Source: Candidatus Baldrarchaeota archaeon
GTDB taxonomy: Archaea > Asgardarchaeota > Baldrarchaeia > Baldrarchaeales > DXJG01
NCBI GenBank assembly: GCA_019056805.1
Contig: DXJG01000005.1
Span: forward strand, 1,419-33,418
Direction of reading: 5' to 3'
Length of the DNA: 32,000 nucleotides
In this document: piece after piece, positions 1 to 7,723 of the stretch
How the letters are laid out: every line of letters starts with the position of its first letter
Numbering within the stretch: position 1 is the stretch's first letter
Translations under genes and position numbers: made by a program
Notes under the pieces: generated by a model
Told to the model about the DNA's origin: nothing
Databases searched by the model: none
The model's input: the letters and a program-made list of their open reading frames with translations, nothing else

Positions 1-1085
1 CAAAGATATGAAAGCTCATTTATAATGTCTTTTCCATTCTTTGAACGGCCTCCAAGTTCGAAGTGGAAAGATCGATATCCAGTGTGGTATTTTGCTGCGG
101 TGTGAGATTTTAGTGAATAGTTTAGCCATCCAAATTTAATAAATAGACATTCAAGTAGTTCTAGGGCATCTTCTTTTGTTAATCTCCCCTCTTCTATATC
201 TTTTTTGTAAAATGGATACATGTATTCGTCGAAGCGCCCTGTTGAATATCCAATTCCACCTTCCTCTATATAACTTGCAACAAAAACGAACCAAAATGAT
301 TGTAATGCTTCATGGAAATTTCTTGCGGGATTTGCTGACACCCAGCTACATATCTCGCTAATTTTTAATAGTTCTTCTTTTCGTTGAGGATCAGTTTCTT
401 TTTCAGCAAGTTCACGTGCTAGATTTGCATATCTTTTAGCCCAGTTGATTACAGCATCAATACATATCAGTGCTGCCTCATAGAACTGTTTGACTGCCTC
501 ATGTGGAACTTTTGCCAGTTTTTCTTTTATTTCTTCCTTTATTCCATTTAGTCCTTTATGAAGTACTTTTGGGTTAAATATGACGTGTCCTGGACCTGAG
601 CTAGCAAATGCACCTAAATTTGCTAGCTCAGTGTCCTTGGGAGGATATTCAAAGGGGTTCATGAAAAATACTTCTCTAATTGCTGGAGATAATCGATTAA
701 ACATAACTTCGTGTAGTGTTTTTCCTCGCCAATAGGGGAAAACCTTTTCTCTTAACACTTTTTTAGTTGTTTCATCTACTTCGGTTGGCTCATATTTCCT
801 TGTGGGAAGTTCATCTAATACTTTTTCTATCCAATGAGCAACATATTCAGGGTAAAGAGGCGTTCCAAGTGGCTCAGTTGTAGGGGAACCAACGATCAAT
901 TCACCATCATCAATTATGATCGGCATTTCTTCTAACACTTTTTTGAAAGCTTTTGCTCTTCTTATTATTTGGGGTTCCCCTTCGGTTTCTCTGTAACTTT
1001 CTGTCACTAACACAGCTCTTGTAGCATCAAGCTTAGGTTTAGCTGTCCAAACTTTCTCTACTAACTTTCTTACTCTATGTCGCAT
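1..1085 (-). CDS. Glycyl radical enzyme (PFL2/HypD/CutC-like superfamily), N-terminal ~361 aa, truncated by the window edge
   Basis: Hand translation from ATG at 1085 (SD AGGTGGTGA) is open to position 1: MRHRVRKLVEKVWTAKPKLDATRAVLVTESYRETEGEPQIIRRAKAFKKVLEEMPIIIDDGELIVG...NPARNFHEALQSFWF...STGRFDEYMYPFYKKDIEEGRLTKEDALELLECLFIK. These are typical GRE segments. Absent from the ORF track because no stop lies in the window. Confidence 0.92.
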   Translation of the reverse strand, partial: MRHRVRKLVEKVWTAKPKLDATRAVLVTESYRETEGEPQIIRRAKAFKKVLEEMPIIIDDGELIVGSPTTEPLGTPLYPEYVAHWIEKVLDELPTRKYEPTEVDETTKKVLREKVFPYWRGKTLHEVMFNRLSPAIREVFFMNPFEYPPKDTELANLGAFASSGPGHVIFNPKVLHKGLNGIKEEIKEKLAKVPHEAVKQFYEAALICIDAVINWAKRYANLARELAEKETDPQRKEELLKISEICSWVSANPARNFHEALQSFWFVFVASYIEEGGIGYSTGRFDEYMYPFYKKDIEEGRLTKEDALELLECLFIKFGWLNYSLKSHTAAKYHTGYRSFHFELGGRSKNGKDIINELSYL

Positions 1086-1120: not shown

Positions 1121-1467
1121 TATCGTTGTAAAAGTTAAAATTTTTCGACATGTCTAGATATAAAAAATCCGTCAATAAAGGATGACTAAGGACGTATGAT
1201 CGGGAGATTTTATTTTTAAAGTTAGTTTTTAAATTTGGGCTGTGGGATGATGTGTGATTTGAGGTTTTGTGTTGATTGGGATACGTTTAACCTGAAACAT
1301 GTTAATTATTGACGTAGACCCTAGGTTCGATGCATACTTTGCTCTAAAAATCCTAACTAGTACAAGTACACCTGACTGTGATCGTCAATTAGGAGGATTT
1401 TTAAATACAGCTACAAACTATGAGTCTTATAGGATTTTATCATATTGAAAAATGGAAAATAAAACAG

Positions 1468-2763
1468 TCATATGTCTTTTAGAACTTCTCTATAGCCTTC
1501 CATGTCAAAGAACCCGTTTCCCGACACGTTAAAAACTATGACTTTTTCTTTGTTTTCTCTTTTCGCTTTAAGTGCTTCGTCGATTGCTGCTTTTACTGCA
1601 TATGCTGATTCTAAAGCTACTAGGACTCCTTCTGTTTGCAAAAATATTTTTGCAGCTTCGAGTGCTTCTTTTTCATCCAAGGCTATAGCATCAATTATTC
1701 CTTCATGTCTTAACAGACTTAATGTTGGTGATGAACTACTGCTTCTAAGTCCTTCTGCCCTGATTAGTGGAAGTTTAGTTTCAACACCTAGCGTGTACAT
1801 TTTCATTAGGGGTAATGTTCTTGAGGGCTCTACGAAATCATAGCGATATTCTCCCTTAATTAGTGTAGGAGCTGCAGATGTTTGAACAACTAGAAACTTG
1901 ATATTTCCCAGTTTTCCATCTAAATAATCTTTTATGAACGGATACGCCAATCCAGGGAAATTGCTTCCAGTTCCGCCACATGAGAGAACAACATCTGGAC
2001 TTTTGTCAATAATTTCAAGTTGTTTCTTCGTTTCTAAACCAATAATGGTATGATGCATTATTACATGATTCATTCTACTACCCCAAATAGCAACAGTGTC
2101 ATCATTATTTAATGCAACCTCAAAAGTTTCAGCATATGCAGTGCCTAAACTTCCTGGATGCTCCGGGTTTTCTTCCAAATATTTCTTCCCTATTTTAGTT
2201 GTTTCACTTGGTGATTCAATTACCTTGGCATTAAGCATCCGAGTGTATGAAGCTCTCTCGCGCTTCATGCGACAAGCATGTCTAACCCAAAAAATGGTAC
2301 AATCGAGGCTAAACATTGCTGCAGCAAAAGCAACTGCACTTCCAACCTGACCCGCGCCGGTAGGTGCTACTACTCTTTTAAACCCCTCTTTATACGCGTA
2401 ATAAACCTGTGGAATCATCGAATTCATTTTAAAACTGCCAGTAGGTGCTAAATCTTCACGCTTATAATATATACGGGCAGGGGTATTTAGAAACTCTTCA
2501 AGTCTCTTAGCTCTGTATAAAGGCCTTGGCCTTCCTATATGAATGTATAATTCTCTAACCTTATCTGGTATCGATATCCATCTTTCCTTCGAAAATTCTA
2601 GTTCAAGTGATGTTTTTGTGAAAAGTTTTTTCATTAGTTCAACCCTTGACACTCCTTTTTCAGGTTCTTTGTAGGGTGGTAGAGGTTTTGGCAAATCTGG
2701 TAGAATATTATACCAGTGTTTTGGTAGCTCATCAACCGGAAGGAAAATATGATTGTTTTTCAA
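1468..2763 (-). CDS. TrpB2-like fold-type II PLP-dependent enzyme with a divergent active site
   Basis: TrpB2 backbone: ELPKHWYNILPDLP, ARIYYKRE..PTGSFKMN (PLP Lys), TGAGQVGSA, HPGSLG, GG(T)GSNF, YTLG, ESAYA, SGNG. Start reassigned to TTG 2763 (SD GGAGGG at 2777-2772) rather than 2820. Confidence 0.88.
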   Translation of the reverse strand: MKNNHIFLPVDELPKHWYNILPDLPKPLPPYKEPEKGVSRVELMKKLFTKTSLELEFSKERWISIPDKVRELYIHIGRPRPLYRAKRLEEFLNTPARIYYKREDLAPTGSFKMNSMIPQVYYAYKEGFKRVVAPTGAGQVGSAVAFAAAMFSLDCTIFWVRHACRMKRERASYTRMLNAKVIESPSETTKIGKKYLEENPEHPGSLGTAYAETFEVALNNDDTVAIWGSRMNHVIMHHTIIGLETKKQLEIIDKSPDVVLSCGGTGSNFPGLAYPFIKDYLDGKLGNIKFLVVQTSAAPTLIKGEYRYDFVEPSRTLPLMKMYTLGVETKLPLIRAEGLRSSSSSPTLSLLRHEGIIDAIALDEKEALEAAKIFLQTEGVLVALESAYAVKAAIDEALKAKRENKEKVIVFNVSGNGFFDMEGYREVLKDI

Positions 2764-2788
2764 CGTTACAGCCCTCCTATAAATTAGT

Positions 2789-3223
2789 TTAGGACATGAG
2801 TATTTTAACGCTATTGCCAATTTTTAAATTTAATTTACCTCCGGTACTCACTTCATCCGCCTTTAGAAGTAGAGTAATATGATTTGGGGCATGTGTTGTA
2901 TCGAAACCAGCAATTACACCGATAAGTCTATCACTAATGTATACTTCATCCCCAACAACAGCAACTCCCCCGTTTTTCACTTCCATGAAACCTATATAGC
3001 CAACATGATTCACAACTTTTCCGGGTGAAGCATCTTCTTCGTCGGTTATAGCAATTTCGCAAATAGAGTTCTTTGCAAGAGCCCTTGACATCGGGTCAAT
3101 CAGTTTCATACCTCTTTCATCTATTATAATGTCAAGAATTGCAACTATTTCCCCTAAAATTTCTCTTTTCGCTATATATGGACTCTTTTTAATTAATCCG
3201 GATTTGTATGGTTCTTTGCTCAT
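2789..3223 (-). CDS. Small conserved beta-rich hypothetical protein (resembles the DUF6917-type family recalled from anaerobic Firmicutes)
   Basis: 144 aa with SD GGATGTGA. Motifs GYIGFMEVKNGGVAVVGDEV and GVIAGFDTTHAPNH. The family name is from memory and was not searched. Confidence 0.7.
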   Translation of the reverse strand: MSKEPYKSGLIKKSPYIAKREILGEIVAILDIIIDERGMKLIDPMSRALAKNSICEIAITDEEDASPGKVVNHVGYIGFMEVKNGGVAVVGDEVYISDRLIGVIAGFDTTHAPNHITLLLKADEVSTGGKLNLKIGNSVKILMS

Positions 3224-3364
3224 TTCTCATCACATCCTGAGGTTAACTCGTCAAACCAAATAATTGAAATTTTATATATTATTAGATTTCATATTAACAA
3301 TTATAACACTTTTATTTCTGGTGAAACAATAATATTGTAATACATAAATATCAAGGTGAGAAGA

Positions 3365-3835
3365 ATGGCTGGTCAAGAGAGAAGGATATGTGTAGACCCA
3401 GATTTTTTCGACCTAGAAATATATGCAATATATTATGCGATTTACGACCTTGTTGGAGAAGATACATGGAAGGTTGTATGGAAAGCTGGTGAAATAGTAT
3501 ATAATGAGATAAAAGATAAGATTGGAGCTGCAGACGCAAAGGACCCCTTTGAATCGCTTAAAAAATTGGCAGAATGGTTGAAAAAGGTGGGCTATATAGA
3601 AGATATCGAGGTACGTAAAGTGGCAGAGGACGAAATAGAGTACGTTATGCTCAATCCTATAATTACTTCAGGAGCAAAGAGATTAATTCAAGAAGGCCGC
3701 GTTCCGGCGCATATTTCAACAGCTTTAATGTTTGCTGCGCTTAAACAATTTAATATGAAAGCAGAAATGGTAGGTGAACCTAAGTTTCTACCCGACGGCC
3801 GTGCTGTAGAGAGGTGGAAGTTGATCAAAATTTAA
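3365..3835 (+). CDS. V4R/H-NOX/Bet3-like small ligand-binding domain protein
   Basis: Pattern WKAGEIVY...LKKLAEWLKKVGY.EDIEV...EIEYVMLNP...ALMFAAL...ERWKL fits the V4R-like fold. Start moved to ATG 3365 (SD GGTGA 3355-3359). Confidence 0.62.
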   Translation: MAGQERRICVDPDFFDLEIYAIYYAIYDLVGEDTWKVVWKAGEIVYNEIKDKIGAADAKDPFESLKKLAEWLKKVGYIEDIEVRKVAEDEIEYVMLNPIITSGAKRLIQEGRVPAHISTALMFAALKQFNMKAEMVGEPKFLPDGRAVERWKLIKI

Positions 3836-5310: not shown

Positions 5311-6627
5311 ATGTCTGGGGAAAGGGAGGAAAAAATACCTCAGACATTTTGGGAATACCTTAAAGCTTGGGGACCCGGTATTGCAGCGGTATTAACTTGG
5401 GCTGGAGCTGGAGATCTCGTTGATTGCGCCGCAGCTGGTGCTAGCTATGGTTATGCCCTCATGTGGGCTCTAACAATTGCTCTACTTCTAAGAGGAGTTA
5501 TAGTCTCTATAATGGCTAAATACGAACTTTGTAATCCCCACCGAGAAACCTTAATAGCAGCATACAAACGACTTGGAACCTGGGTTGCATGGATACTTAT
5601 TGTTGCTTTCTTCTTCTATGCCCACATATACGGTGCATTTCTTCTAAAAGGTTCAGGAGTTGGACTATGGTTACTAAGCGGAAAAGCTGGAGGAGAATGG
5701 GGACTATTTGCCTGGTGTGTAGTACTAATGATAGTTGCAGTCCTCATATGGGGACAATGGGGACAAGGCAAATACAAGTACATTGAATATCTGTTTAAAG
5801 TAACATTGGCCCTCATGACTATAACTTTCTTGGGAACAGCTGCAATTGCAATAGCAAGAAACCCCGCAGCCCTTGGAAAAATGATTCTTGGAGCAATAGC
5901 CGTCGGCTGGATTCCACCAGGAGTTGGACCTTGGGAAGCAAGTTTCATGGCAGTTGCAACTATTGGAGCAATTGGAGGTTCAATAGCGAACTTTCTCTAT
6001 CCATATTTCATAAAAGGTAAAGGATGGACCGATGAAAGATACATAAAGGTACAAAGATTTGATCTGTGGCTTGCTATAATTGTTGTTATAATTTTGGATG
6101 CAGCAATTTGGACCGTAGGAGCAGAAATACTACATCCACAAGGTATTCATGTTACCTCGGTAGAAGACATAGCCTATGCATTGGTTCATATCGTCGGAAC
6201 TGCCGGAGCAGTACTCGTATATGCAGGGTTATTCGTAACAGCTTATGATACATATATCGGTCTTGCTTGTGGTCTCTGTATGGGAGGTATCGACTCCATT
6301 CATCAAGTTATGCCAGAAAGAAAAGAGAAATACAAGAGTTACGAAAATGATCCATGGTACAGATATGCTATATACTATGCTTTGATAACGCCCATTATCT
6401 GGGCTTTACCAGGAATGCCAGGATTTATCTTCATGGTACTCTTCATGAATGCCCTCTCCGTCGTAATAATTCCAATAATTGCCATAGGACTTCTAATCAT
6501 AGCCAACAAAGCAGAGTTCATAGGCGAGAAATATAAGAACAAGTGGTGGGAAAACCTATTATTGATTGTTATAGTGGCAATCGCGCTCTGGAGTACCTAC
6601 CATTTAATAATGTCCTTCATTAAGTAG
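5311..6627 (+). CDS. NRAMP-family-like (YcsG-type) secondary transporter, ~11 TM, lacking the metal-binding motifs
   Basis: GPGIAAVLTWAGAGDL...GASYGYALMW matches the NRAMP-like TM1-2 pattern. DPGN and MPHN motifs are absent. Many hydrophobic segments. Confidence 0.82.
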   Translation: MSGEREEKIPQTFWEYLKAWGPGIAAVLTWAGAGDLVDCAAAGASYGYALMWALTIALLLRGVIVSIMAKYELCNPHRETLIAAYKRLGTWVAWILIVAFFFYAHIYGAFLLKGSGVGLWLLSGKAGGEWGLFAWCVVLMIVAVLIWGQWGQGKYKYIEYLFKVTLALMTITFLGTAAIAIARNPAALGKMILGAIAVGWIPPGVGPWEASFMAVATIGAIGGSIANFLYPYFIKGKGWTDERYIKVQRFDLWLAIIVVIILDAAIWTVGAEILHPQGIHVTSVEDIAYALVHIVGTAGAVLVYAGLFVTAYDTYIGLACGLCMGGIDSIHQVMPERKEKYKSYENDPWYRYAIYYALITPIIWALPGMPGFIFMVLFMNALSVVIIPIIAIGLLIIANKAEFIGEKYKNKWWENLLLIVIVAIALWSTYHLIMSFIK

Positions 6628-6802
6628 CCACAGAGACGTAGAAGTCTGAAATCCTAAAACCTATTTTTTACTTTAAGTTTGATATGACTCAGTTGATTAA
6701 ACGTTTATCTGCCACGTTTTTATTTTGTAATTATTATTTAGCAAAAACTCTTTTGTATAATTAATTATGAATAGCAAATAACATAAAAAGGTGAGTAAGA
6801 AA

Positions 6803-7723
6803 ATGTATAAAGTATTTGAAAGACATGATGTGAACCTTTTAGAGGGAGCTATTGACCTTCATGTACATTCTGCTCCGGACTTATTTGCTAGATCACTGGA
6901 TGCAATTGAATTAGCTAAACAAGCTACAACTGTAGGTATGCGTGCCATTGTCCTAAAATGTCACTTCTTTCCTACAGTATTTACGGCTTATTTTGTTAGA
7001 AAGGCCGTAGAAAATAGTATAGATGTTTTTGGAGGAATCGTGCTTAATCATTATGTTGGAGGATTTAATCCTCATGCAGTTGAAGCATCAATAAAAGCTG
7101 GTGGGAAAATAGTTTGGATGCCAACTATCTCCGCCACAAATCACATTCACCATTATAAAAGTTTGAATAGGGAAGAATGGGGACTAAAAAGTTTAAAGCT
7201 AAAAAGTAGAGGAATAGGATTATCGCCCATAAATAAAAAGGATGAAATTGCCCCGCAAGTGGAGGAAATTCTTAGCATAATAGCTGATACAAATACGATT
7301 CTCGCTACTGGTCATCTTTCTGTTCATGAAATTGAAATACTTGTAGAGGAAGCTAGAAATTTGGGAGTTAGAAAAATTCTTGTAAATCATCCAGCATTTA
7401 GAGTTGTAAATATGCCCGTTGAAAAACAAAAGGAACTGGCGAAGAGGGGAGCTTATATGGAACATGTTTTCTTACTTTTGACTCCGATGTGGTATACCAT
7501 GAATCCAAAGAACATGGTAAAAATGATAAAAGAAGTAGGAATTGACCATTCAATAATAGCCACCGATTTGGGACAAATACATAATCCTTCACCAATTGAA
7601 GGTTTAAGAACCTTTATACAAATACTTTTAGAAAACGGCTTAAAACCACACGAGGTAAGAACTTTAGTGGCTGAAAACCCAGCCAACCTACTTGATATTG
7701 AAATAAAGAAGAATGAAAATTAA
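6803..7723 (+). CDS. Metal-dependent TIM-barrel hydrolase, amidohydrolase superfamily (DUF6282-type)
   Basis: GAIDLHVHSAPD (HxH), VLKCH, ATGHLS, VNHP, ATDLGQ. Start ATG 6803 (SD GGTGAG 6790-6795). Confidence 0.82.
   Translation: MYKVFERHDVNLLEGAIDLHVHSAPDLFARSLDAIELAKQATTVGMRAIVLKCHFFPTVFTAYFVRKAVENSIDVFGGIVLNHYVGGFNPHAVEASIKAGGKIVWMPTISATNHIHHYKSLNREEWGLKSLKLKSRGIGLSPINKKDEIAPQVEEILSIIADTNTILATGHLSVHEIEILVEEARNLGVRKILVNHPAFRVVNMPVEKQKELAKRGAYMEHVFLLLTPMWYTMNPKNMVKMIKEVGIDHSIIATDLGQIHNPSPIEGLRTFIQILLENGLKPHEVRTLVAENPANLLDIEIKKNEN

Follow-up and report, generated by a model that had tools for sequence, protein, structure and literature searches.

We analysed a window of 32,000 nucleotides (nt) from a Candidatus Baldrarchaeota archaeon (contig DXJG01000005.1; C13:1419-33418 of an assembly of 1.92 Mb that is 91% complete). 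Its minus strand carries, at 1468..2763, a gene for a TrpB2-like pyridoxal phosphate (PLP) enzyme of 431 amino acids (aa), assigned by profiles, fold match, motifs and dN/dS. We found that this protein belongs to an undescribed, TrpB2-derived subfamily, the 'GSFKMN' subfamily, and within it to a small clade without the catalytic Glu of tryptophan synthase. From the comparison of sequences it is likely that the protein is an active beta-enzyme which works on something other than indole. The form of this that we prefer is a net beta-elimination (lyase) reaction, predicted from motifs and gene context, to which we give somewhat less than an even chance overall. The complete picture, in which a functional non-indole enzyme of TrpB2 fold carries out a net beta-elimination together with DUF6917 and a glycyl radical enzyme (GRE) cluster, is favoured tentatively and falls a little short of a one-in-two expectation.

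By profile and fold the protein belongs to the TrpB2, or 'TrpB-like', family. It scores 519.8 bits against the NCBIfam model NF009057 ('TrpB-like pyridoxal phosphate-dependent enzyme', cut-off 366) and barely passes the NCBIfam model TIGR01415 (518.9 bits, cut-off 518.85); Pfam recognises the general PALP domain only. Among solved structures it is closest to Sulfolobus TrpB2 (6HUL, 4QYS and 6HTE; E-values between 1e-125 and 1e-102, with 6.6e-125 for 6hul_B). An AlphaFold2 model (predicted local distance difference test score, pLDDT, 82.9) has the TrpB2 fold including the N-terminal extension, and in Foldseek it reaches a template modelling (TM) score of 0.91 to 6hul_B and of 0.90 to 4qys_B. 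The identity to 6hul_B is 47% by Foldseek; all other identities given here come from BLASTP or other alignments.

TrpB2 (TrpB2a and TrpB2i of S. solfataricus; 6HUL, 6HTE, 4QYS) is a stand-alone, O-phospho-L-serine-dependent tryptophan synthase beta chain, and the window protein shares with it the fold, the N-terminal extension and the residues that hold the cofactor. The Schiff-base Lys (GSFK), the phosphate loop GGTGSN, in which one Gly is replaced by Thr, the Ser of SGNG (SGxG in both proteins) and the TGAGQ carboxylate loop are all kept. Furthermore, in the alignment its EGLR falls on the GGLR of both 6hul and 4qys, so that the Arg at the position of Asp305 is retained. In TrpB2, the Arg at the D300/R300 position (Thermotoga numbering) contacts the phosphate of O-phosphoserine (bioRxiv 10.64898/2026.03.11.711232).

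The other half of the active site is rebuilt. In an alignment of the protein with 120 homologues from databases, 97 are canonical TrpB2 and nearly invariant at GSHKxN, TETGAGQWG, GSVLNH, GGGSN, YDFxDxAx, GLRYHx and SGHG. At the same motifs the window protein reads GSFKMN, VAPTGAGQVG, GSRMNH, GGTGSN, YDFVEPSR, EGLRSSS and SGNG. Canonical TrpB2 has 146 positions with a conservation of 95% or more; the window protein departs from them at 26, including H130F, E153P, W159V, V249R, L250M, D331E, Y360S and H435N (residue numbers count from the long form of the open reading frame, ORF). The catalytic Glu of ETGAGQ is Pro in the window protein and Cys or Tyr in its closest relatives. On the indole side, V stands for the Trp or His of GQ[W/H]G, RM is found in the GSVLNH loop, and S takes the place of the aromatic residue that follows the Asp/Arg. 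We located the pocket by equivalence to Salmonella and Pyrococcus TrpB, where we take the relevant sites to be H86-K87, E109, H115, the T190 loop and D305-F306. Mapped in this way, all residues predicted to handle indole are replaced and the PLP-binding residues are kept. Unlike TrpB2, the protein thus combines Pro for Glu, Phe for the His before the Lys, Val for the Trp of GQWG, GSRMNH, E.SR, RSS and SGNG with a gene context free of trp genes. Salmonella mutants in E109 no longer react with indole but remain active with good leaving groups or other nucleophiles.

The original prediction, made from the letters of the window, had described six motifs (GSFKMN, VAPTGAGQVG, GSRMNH, VQTSAAP, YDFVEPSR and RAEGLRSSS), all of which are found in the translation. 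The TrpB2 consensus with which it had compared them proved essentially correct against the 97 canonical homologues, and the PLP Lys, phosphate loop and C-terminal SG that it had called intact are GSFK, GGTGSN and SGNG. Its claim of a systematically rebuilt active site needs one correction. The rebuilt site is present, but most of the changes are common to the whole subfamily, and the small clade of the window protein has to itself only the exchange of Glu for Pro and the W..GSRMNH loop.

Most of the altered motifs are found again in about 24 sequence clusters (P0002-P0023, P0050), mostly from Bathyarchaeia, also from Heimdallarchaeota and from one bacterium, with the consensus GSFKMN / AVETGAGQTG / GSSKNH / YDFxEPSK / R[AG]EGIRS[ST][GS] / SGMG. 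The motif set common to the subfamily (GSFK[ML]N, GQ[TV]G, E[PS]S[KR] and R[ST]xx) is complete in the window protein. In a maximum likelihood tree of 64 rows (IQ-TREE quick search), the 24 rows of the subfamily, with the window protein among them, are monophyletic with a support of 100 in the Shimodaira-Hasegawa-like approximate likelihood ratio test (SH-aLRT). The window protein groups with P0002, P0003 and P0007 in a Glu-less clade of four clusters (support 97), which is the sister of the main, Glu-containing clade (support 99). With the main clade it shares 56-62% identity, the single subfamily clade, the exchanges H to F, D to E and YH to S[ST], and the cationic pocket residues. In contrast to the window protein, the main clade keeps the Glu, has SK in place of RM and adjoins genes for ComB, YeiH, EamA, Ldh_2 or CysH.

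The Glu is also retained in the basal trio P0019, P0023 and P0050, as it is in the majority of the subfamily. Since both the basal and the sister branches keep it, the tree indicates a single loss, in the ancestor of the four-cluster clade, where the position is now Pro, Cys or Tyr. The change from Glu to Pro is a late and secondary event within this sister clade. All four Glu-less clusters have W246, R249, M250 and I254 without exception in the loop equivalent to GSVLNH; because the clade has fixed residues of its own, its history looks like re-specialisation and not like relaxation.

Many divergent TrpB2-like clades elsewhere (P0122-P0271, from a library of 50%-identity representatives that left the window's own subfamily unresolved) show Asp, Gly, Ala, Ser or His in the position of the Glu, and loops such as GCMSYY and GSGENC. 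As other clades carry these residues there, the loss of the Glu appears to have precedents in the wider TrpB2 superfamily, which seems functionally far more diverse than its annotation. A literature search, with most subscription journals outside it, found nothing on the 'GSFKMN' subfamily, DUF6917, a TrpB-type cysteate synthase or a loss of this Glu.

A metagenomic copy of the gene (L010) encodes a protein that is 94% identical to the window protein, with differences in 157 of 430 codons. Between the two, the nonsynonymous divergence (dN) is 0.029-0.030, the synonymous divergence (dS) 0.59-0.86 and their ratio omega 0.034-0.051; the value of omega is that of this pair only, dS being saturated against the relatives at 69% and 60% identity. 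The frame is unbroken in four independent assemblies, and the sequencing runs listed with the sequence are subsurface and marine metagenomes (DNA only). Judged by this pair, the gene is under strong purifying selection and is not decaying. The original prediction had named unique substitutions and a dN/dS near 1 as the signs of decay, and neither was seen: the substitutions belong to a monophyletic subfamily (support 100) and omega is about 0.04.

The host genome contains two further TrpB2 genes (L002, L003), whose motifs are fully canonical. TrpA (PF00290) had no match anywhere in the 91%-complete genome, which extends to the genome the earlier remark that no trpA lies nearby. Two canonical TrpB2 genes and no detected TrpA are consistent with indole salvage rather than with de novo synthesis of tryptophan. 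No trp genes were found near subfamily members in any of the contexts inspected. Two true CysK/CysM genes score above cut-off in the host genome, where searches for SepCysS, ComB and YeiH each found none. When genome contigs were searched by patterns common to canonical TrpB2, 79 canonical loci and one subfamily member were obtained. Since only one of 400 sampled genomes of the phylum carries a member (G000; the sample includes three of the same genus), the TrpB2-like gene is a rare accessory gene. In a relative from the same genus, a canonical TrpB2 gene (L123, G039:C13:21379-22626) has one in-frame TAG.

A non-indole beta-enzyme is the best reading of the gene because it is under selection, its cofactor residues and the Arg are intact, the genome already has two canonical TrpB2 copies and there is no trp context. 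This supports, by comparison, the earlier suggestion of a beta-replacement or elimination enzyme with a substrate other than indole. In the mechanism that we propose, a PLP-bound aminoacrylate would form from an L-amino acid whose beta substituent is anionic and leaves readily; since the Arg is retained, O-phospho-L-serine would be the simplest candidate donor. The residues on the indole side are swapped for ones that are small, polar or cationic (H to F, W to T/V, VL to SK/RM, D..AE to E.S[KR] and YH to S[ST]), and the rebuilt pocket with its two new Arg may hold a small polar or anionic group in the place of indole. In the clade of the window, the nucleophile-activating Glu has been given up and the loop with W246, R249, M250 and I254 fixed. 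The net reaction would convert the substrate to pyruvate, ammonia and an anion, and such a lyase might serve anaerobic amino-acid or peptide catabolism, with the putatively co-transcribed DUF6917 gene and the adjacent GRE cluster. We lean to beta-elimination because of the loss of the nucleophile-activating Glu and because of the catabolic setting, as the surroundings in the window include genes for a GRE, an electron transfer flavoprotein (ETF) and an acyl-CoA dehydrogenase.

Several points speak against beta-elimination in such a pathway. Enzymes of the TrpB fold are as a rule synthases and keep the aminoacrylate from being hydrolysed. Our pocket positions are presumed from motif equivalence to the Salmonella TrpB sites. 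Moreover, the three Glu-less lineages differ in their neighbours: DUF6917 and GRE genes in the window type, DapA in P0007, and in P0003 a thiohydantoin-desulfurase-like DUF917 gene upstream; therefore, no single pathway is implied. The linkage to the GRE appears to be one of adjacency only, because the genes are separated by a run of T and by 292 nt from the stop of the TrpB2-like gene to the GRE ORF (about 380 nt from the conserved GRE start M31, an ATG at 1085). Finally, DUF6917 has no other ties to TrpB-like genes.

Close behind beta-elimination we rank a beta-replacement synthase on the TrpB2 scaffold that uses a small anionic or sulfur nucleophile, for instance sulfite (O-phosphoserine + sulfite to L-cysteate), sulfide or a thiol. 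We consider it a serious possibility, at roughly one chance in three. Its support comes mainly from the gene contexts of the sister clade, which were seen in Bathyarchaeia (L004-L007, L018, L149-L173), in Heimdall-type genomes (L013, L169) and in one bacterium (L011). The Bathyarchaeia group has 28 loci, many with too little flank for context; where the flank suffices, an EamA gene is followed by the TrpB-like gene (then a YeiH-family transporter gene), a ComB-family phosphatase gene and a radical SAM gene. The Heimdall-type loci have an aspartate-aminotransferase-like gene, then Ldh_2, the TrpB-like gene and YeiH, and two more main-clade lineages carry YeiH nearby. The bacterial member directly follows CysH (226 bits, cut-off 154). 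These contexts suggest a C3-sulfonate or sulfite step, e.g. O-phosphoserine + sulfite to cysteate, or the reverse. The new Lys and Arg in the former indole pocket, the position of the Glu-less P0003 after a thiohydantoin-desulfurase-like gene and the reactions with other nucleophiles kept by the Salmonella E109 mutants would also fit a replacement reaction.

Within the main clade, however, the best NCBIfam match of the Heimdall-type Ldh_2, the L-sulfolactate dehydrogenase model, stays below its cut-off (253 bits against 500), and the ComB-family matches also lie under the equivalog cut-off. The link of ComB to sulfolactate is uncertain because ComA was not found in the one Bathyarchaeia genome that was searched. 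For the window copy itself, the missing ComB and YeiH, the two CysK/CysM genes already in the genome and a context of DUF6917 and GRE instead of sulfur genes argue against beta-replacement. A role as cysteine synthase was set aside for this copy because of the two true CysK/CysM genes.

Known enzymes offer parallels in mechanism. Cysteate synthase (ThrC-like, TIGR03844), O-phosphoserine sulfhydrylase and CysK/CysM are, like the window protein, fold-type II PLP enzymes; in them an aminoacrylate derived from O-phosphoserine or O-acetylserine is passed to a small sulfur nucleophile, and it is possible that the window protein is a functional analogue of these enzymes. It is not a cysteate synthase by profile (21.3 bits against a TIGR03844 cut-off of 324.9) and not a CysK/CysM (cysK, 36 bits against 350.95). 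The catabolic threonine/serine ammonia-lyases IlvA and TdcB share with it the fold-type II PLP architecture and the S-F-K motif around the Lys; unlike them, it scores only 31-42 bits against cut-offs above 370, and the domain architectures differ. A member of the IlvA/TdcB family takes the equivalent place beside DUF6917 and its divergent neighbour, a 159-aa ORF, in another genome (G025). The window protein thus lies outside the cysteate synthase, CysK/CysM and IlvA families and may work like one of them.

A joint scheme may be drawn in which the 'GSFKMN' proteins are a natural TrpB-fold family whose evolution led away from indole: the main clade makes or cleaves C3 sulfonates with ComB-, ComC- and YeiH-like partners, and the window clade is a new beta-lyase, with DUF6917, that in an Asgard archaeon feeds or follows a GRE of a new chemical type (CxCxT and not GCVE in the Cys loop); we regard this scheme as unlikely. 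Still less probable is a non-catalytic or decaying paralogue, such as a pseudoenzyme, a regulator or a binding protein. The protein has lost a residue deemed essential for the reaction of its family, the position varies among the relatives (Pro, Cys, Tyr), and the gene is rare and patchy, with G000 the only carrier in 400 genomes of the phylum. The low omega of about 0.04, the intact PLP Lys, phosphate loop, TGAGQ and SGxG, the invariant clade-specific residues and the frame kept in four assemblies all disagree with that view. A residual tryptophan synthase, or an indole-salvage TrpB2 with an unusual pocket, is very improbable. In its favour, the protein scores above the cut-off of the NCBIfam TrpB-like model, folds like TrpB2 and retains the Arg for phosphoserine. 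Against it, other residues stand in place of the Glu, the Trp/His115, the VL of GSVLNH and the Tyr that follows the Arg, two canonical TrpB2 copies are present in the genome and no trp genes lie near subfamily members.

Upstream of the TrpB2-like gene, a DUF6917 gene of 144 aa (2789..3223, minus strand; Pfam PF21891, E 1.4e-41) ends 25 nt before the TrpB2-like start, and the arrangement recurs in L010, L148 and L150. A Shine-Dalgarno-like AGGAGGG at 2772..2778 (minus strand), read from the sequence, lies 8 nt ahead of the start codon TTG 2763, and a T-rich run at 1447..1464 (minus strand), likewise read from the sequence, directly follows the TGA stop of the TrpB2-like gene; this run is possibly an archaeal oligo-T terminator. 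Because of the Shine-Dalgarno motif, the 25-nt gap and the T-run past the stop, the two genes probably form a co-transcribed two-gene operon. The longest TrpB2-like frame in the ORF list has 450 aa in translation and starts at TTG 2820. TTG 2763 is most likely the true start, since it has the Shine-Dalgarno motif, the upstream gene ends at 2789 and the homologue P0002 (94% identical) is annotated with the equivalent start. The long start at TTG 2820 was rejected: its frame overlaps DUF6917, and the homologues and the Shine-Dalgarno motif favour TTG 2763.

The DUF6917 protein is modelled as a small beta-barrel (pLDDT 90). Comparison of the model with the PDB by Foldseek and VIA-align returned nothing significant, with generic beta-barrels only (Z at most 4.6), among them domain II of translation factors and a weak PTS IIA-gutA-like match, and no functional lead. 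A complex prediction of the TrpB-like protein with DUF6917 scored 0.00, which counts neither for nor against a pairing. Divergent from DUF6917 lies the 159-aa ORF (3356..3835, plus strand), which matches no Pfam or NCBIfam family. The divergent pair is kept in G025 (L176:919-1965), where DUF6917 is 62% and the 159-aa ORF 75% identical to the window copies and an IlvA/TdcB-like PLP dehydratase gene adjoins. Near the same DUF6917 locus of this archaeal genome of the phylum, at L176:3076-3723 (minus strand), an ORF with a type VI secretion system (T6SS) Hcp domain was observed (Pfam, E 2e-38).

L115 and L116 have, in this order, genes for PrpD-like, enolase-superfamily, RidA, DUF6917 and TctCBA proteins, a GRE of the clade found in the window and its activase, and in 10 other genomes of the phylum DUF6917 is flanked by genes for a peptide-ABC ATPase and for an Ntn hydrolase. 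In other genomes, then, the company of DUF6917 is catabolic, and the TrpB-like gene of the window fills a slot held in other genomes by a transporter or by a deaminating PLP lyase.

The GRE gene lies at the edge of the window (1..1085, minus strand; P0272). This is its N-terminal part; the gene, of 791 aa counted from M31, runs on past the window (C13:128-2503; L012:128-2503). It has the PFL-like and Gly_radical domains and the glycyl-radical motif RVSGY. Its Cys loop reads FCGCDTP, versus GCVE in HypD, glycerol dehydratase and CutC; GCVE is present in 100 of 121 aligned GRE sequences. The closest relatives (P0274-P0279, 54-60% identity) share C[GA]C[VD]TP and sit behind TctCBA transporters, beside POR/PTA genes, or with PrpD, enolase-superfamily, RidA and DUF6917 genes. 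In L010, the gene for the activating enzyme lies downstream of the GRE. The chemistry of this GRE is probably of a new type.

Beyond the 159-aa ORF follow genes for a GidA-like flavoprotein, an Nramp-like transporter, a DUF6282 protein, ETF and acyl-CoA dehydrogenase. The transporter (5311..6627, plus strand) scores 64.4 bits against the general NCBIfam model for Nramp divalent-metal transporters (cut-off 50) and 25 against the MntH model (cut-off 430). The DUF6282 gene (6791..7723, plus strand) has the TrpB-like operon on one side and the genes for ETF and acyl-CoA dehydrogenase on the other. Both may be part of the same catabolic cluster.

TrpB is among the most heavily engineered enzymes for the production of non-canonical amino acids. 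Natural enzymes of the TrpB fold that have moved away from indole would, if confirmed, be examples of how an acceptor pocket is retuned in evolution, and would supply new scaffolds. Databases label all such proteins 'TrpB-like' or 'tryptophan synthase beta chain'; hence, tryptophan salvage is probably over-predicted in the genomes of Bathyarchaeia and Asgard archaea. The sulfolactate- and sulfite-related neighbours of the main clade hint at an unrecognised C3-sulfonate step in abundant sediment archaea, and the copy in the window would mark an as yet uncharacterised cluster for anaerobic catabolism that includes a glycyl radical enzyme.

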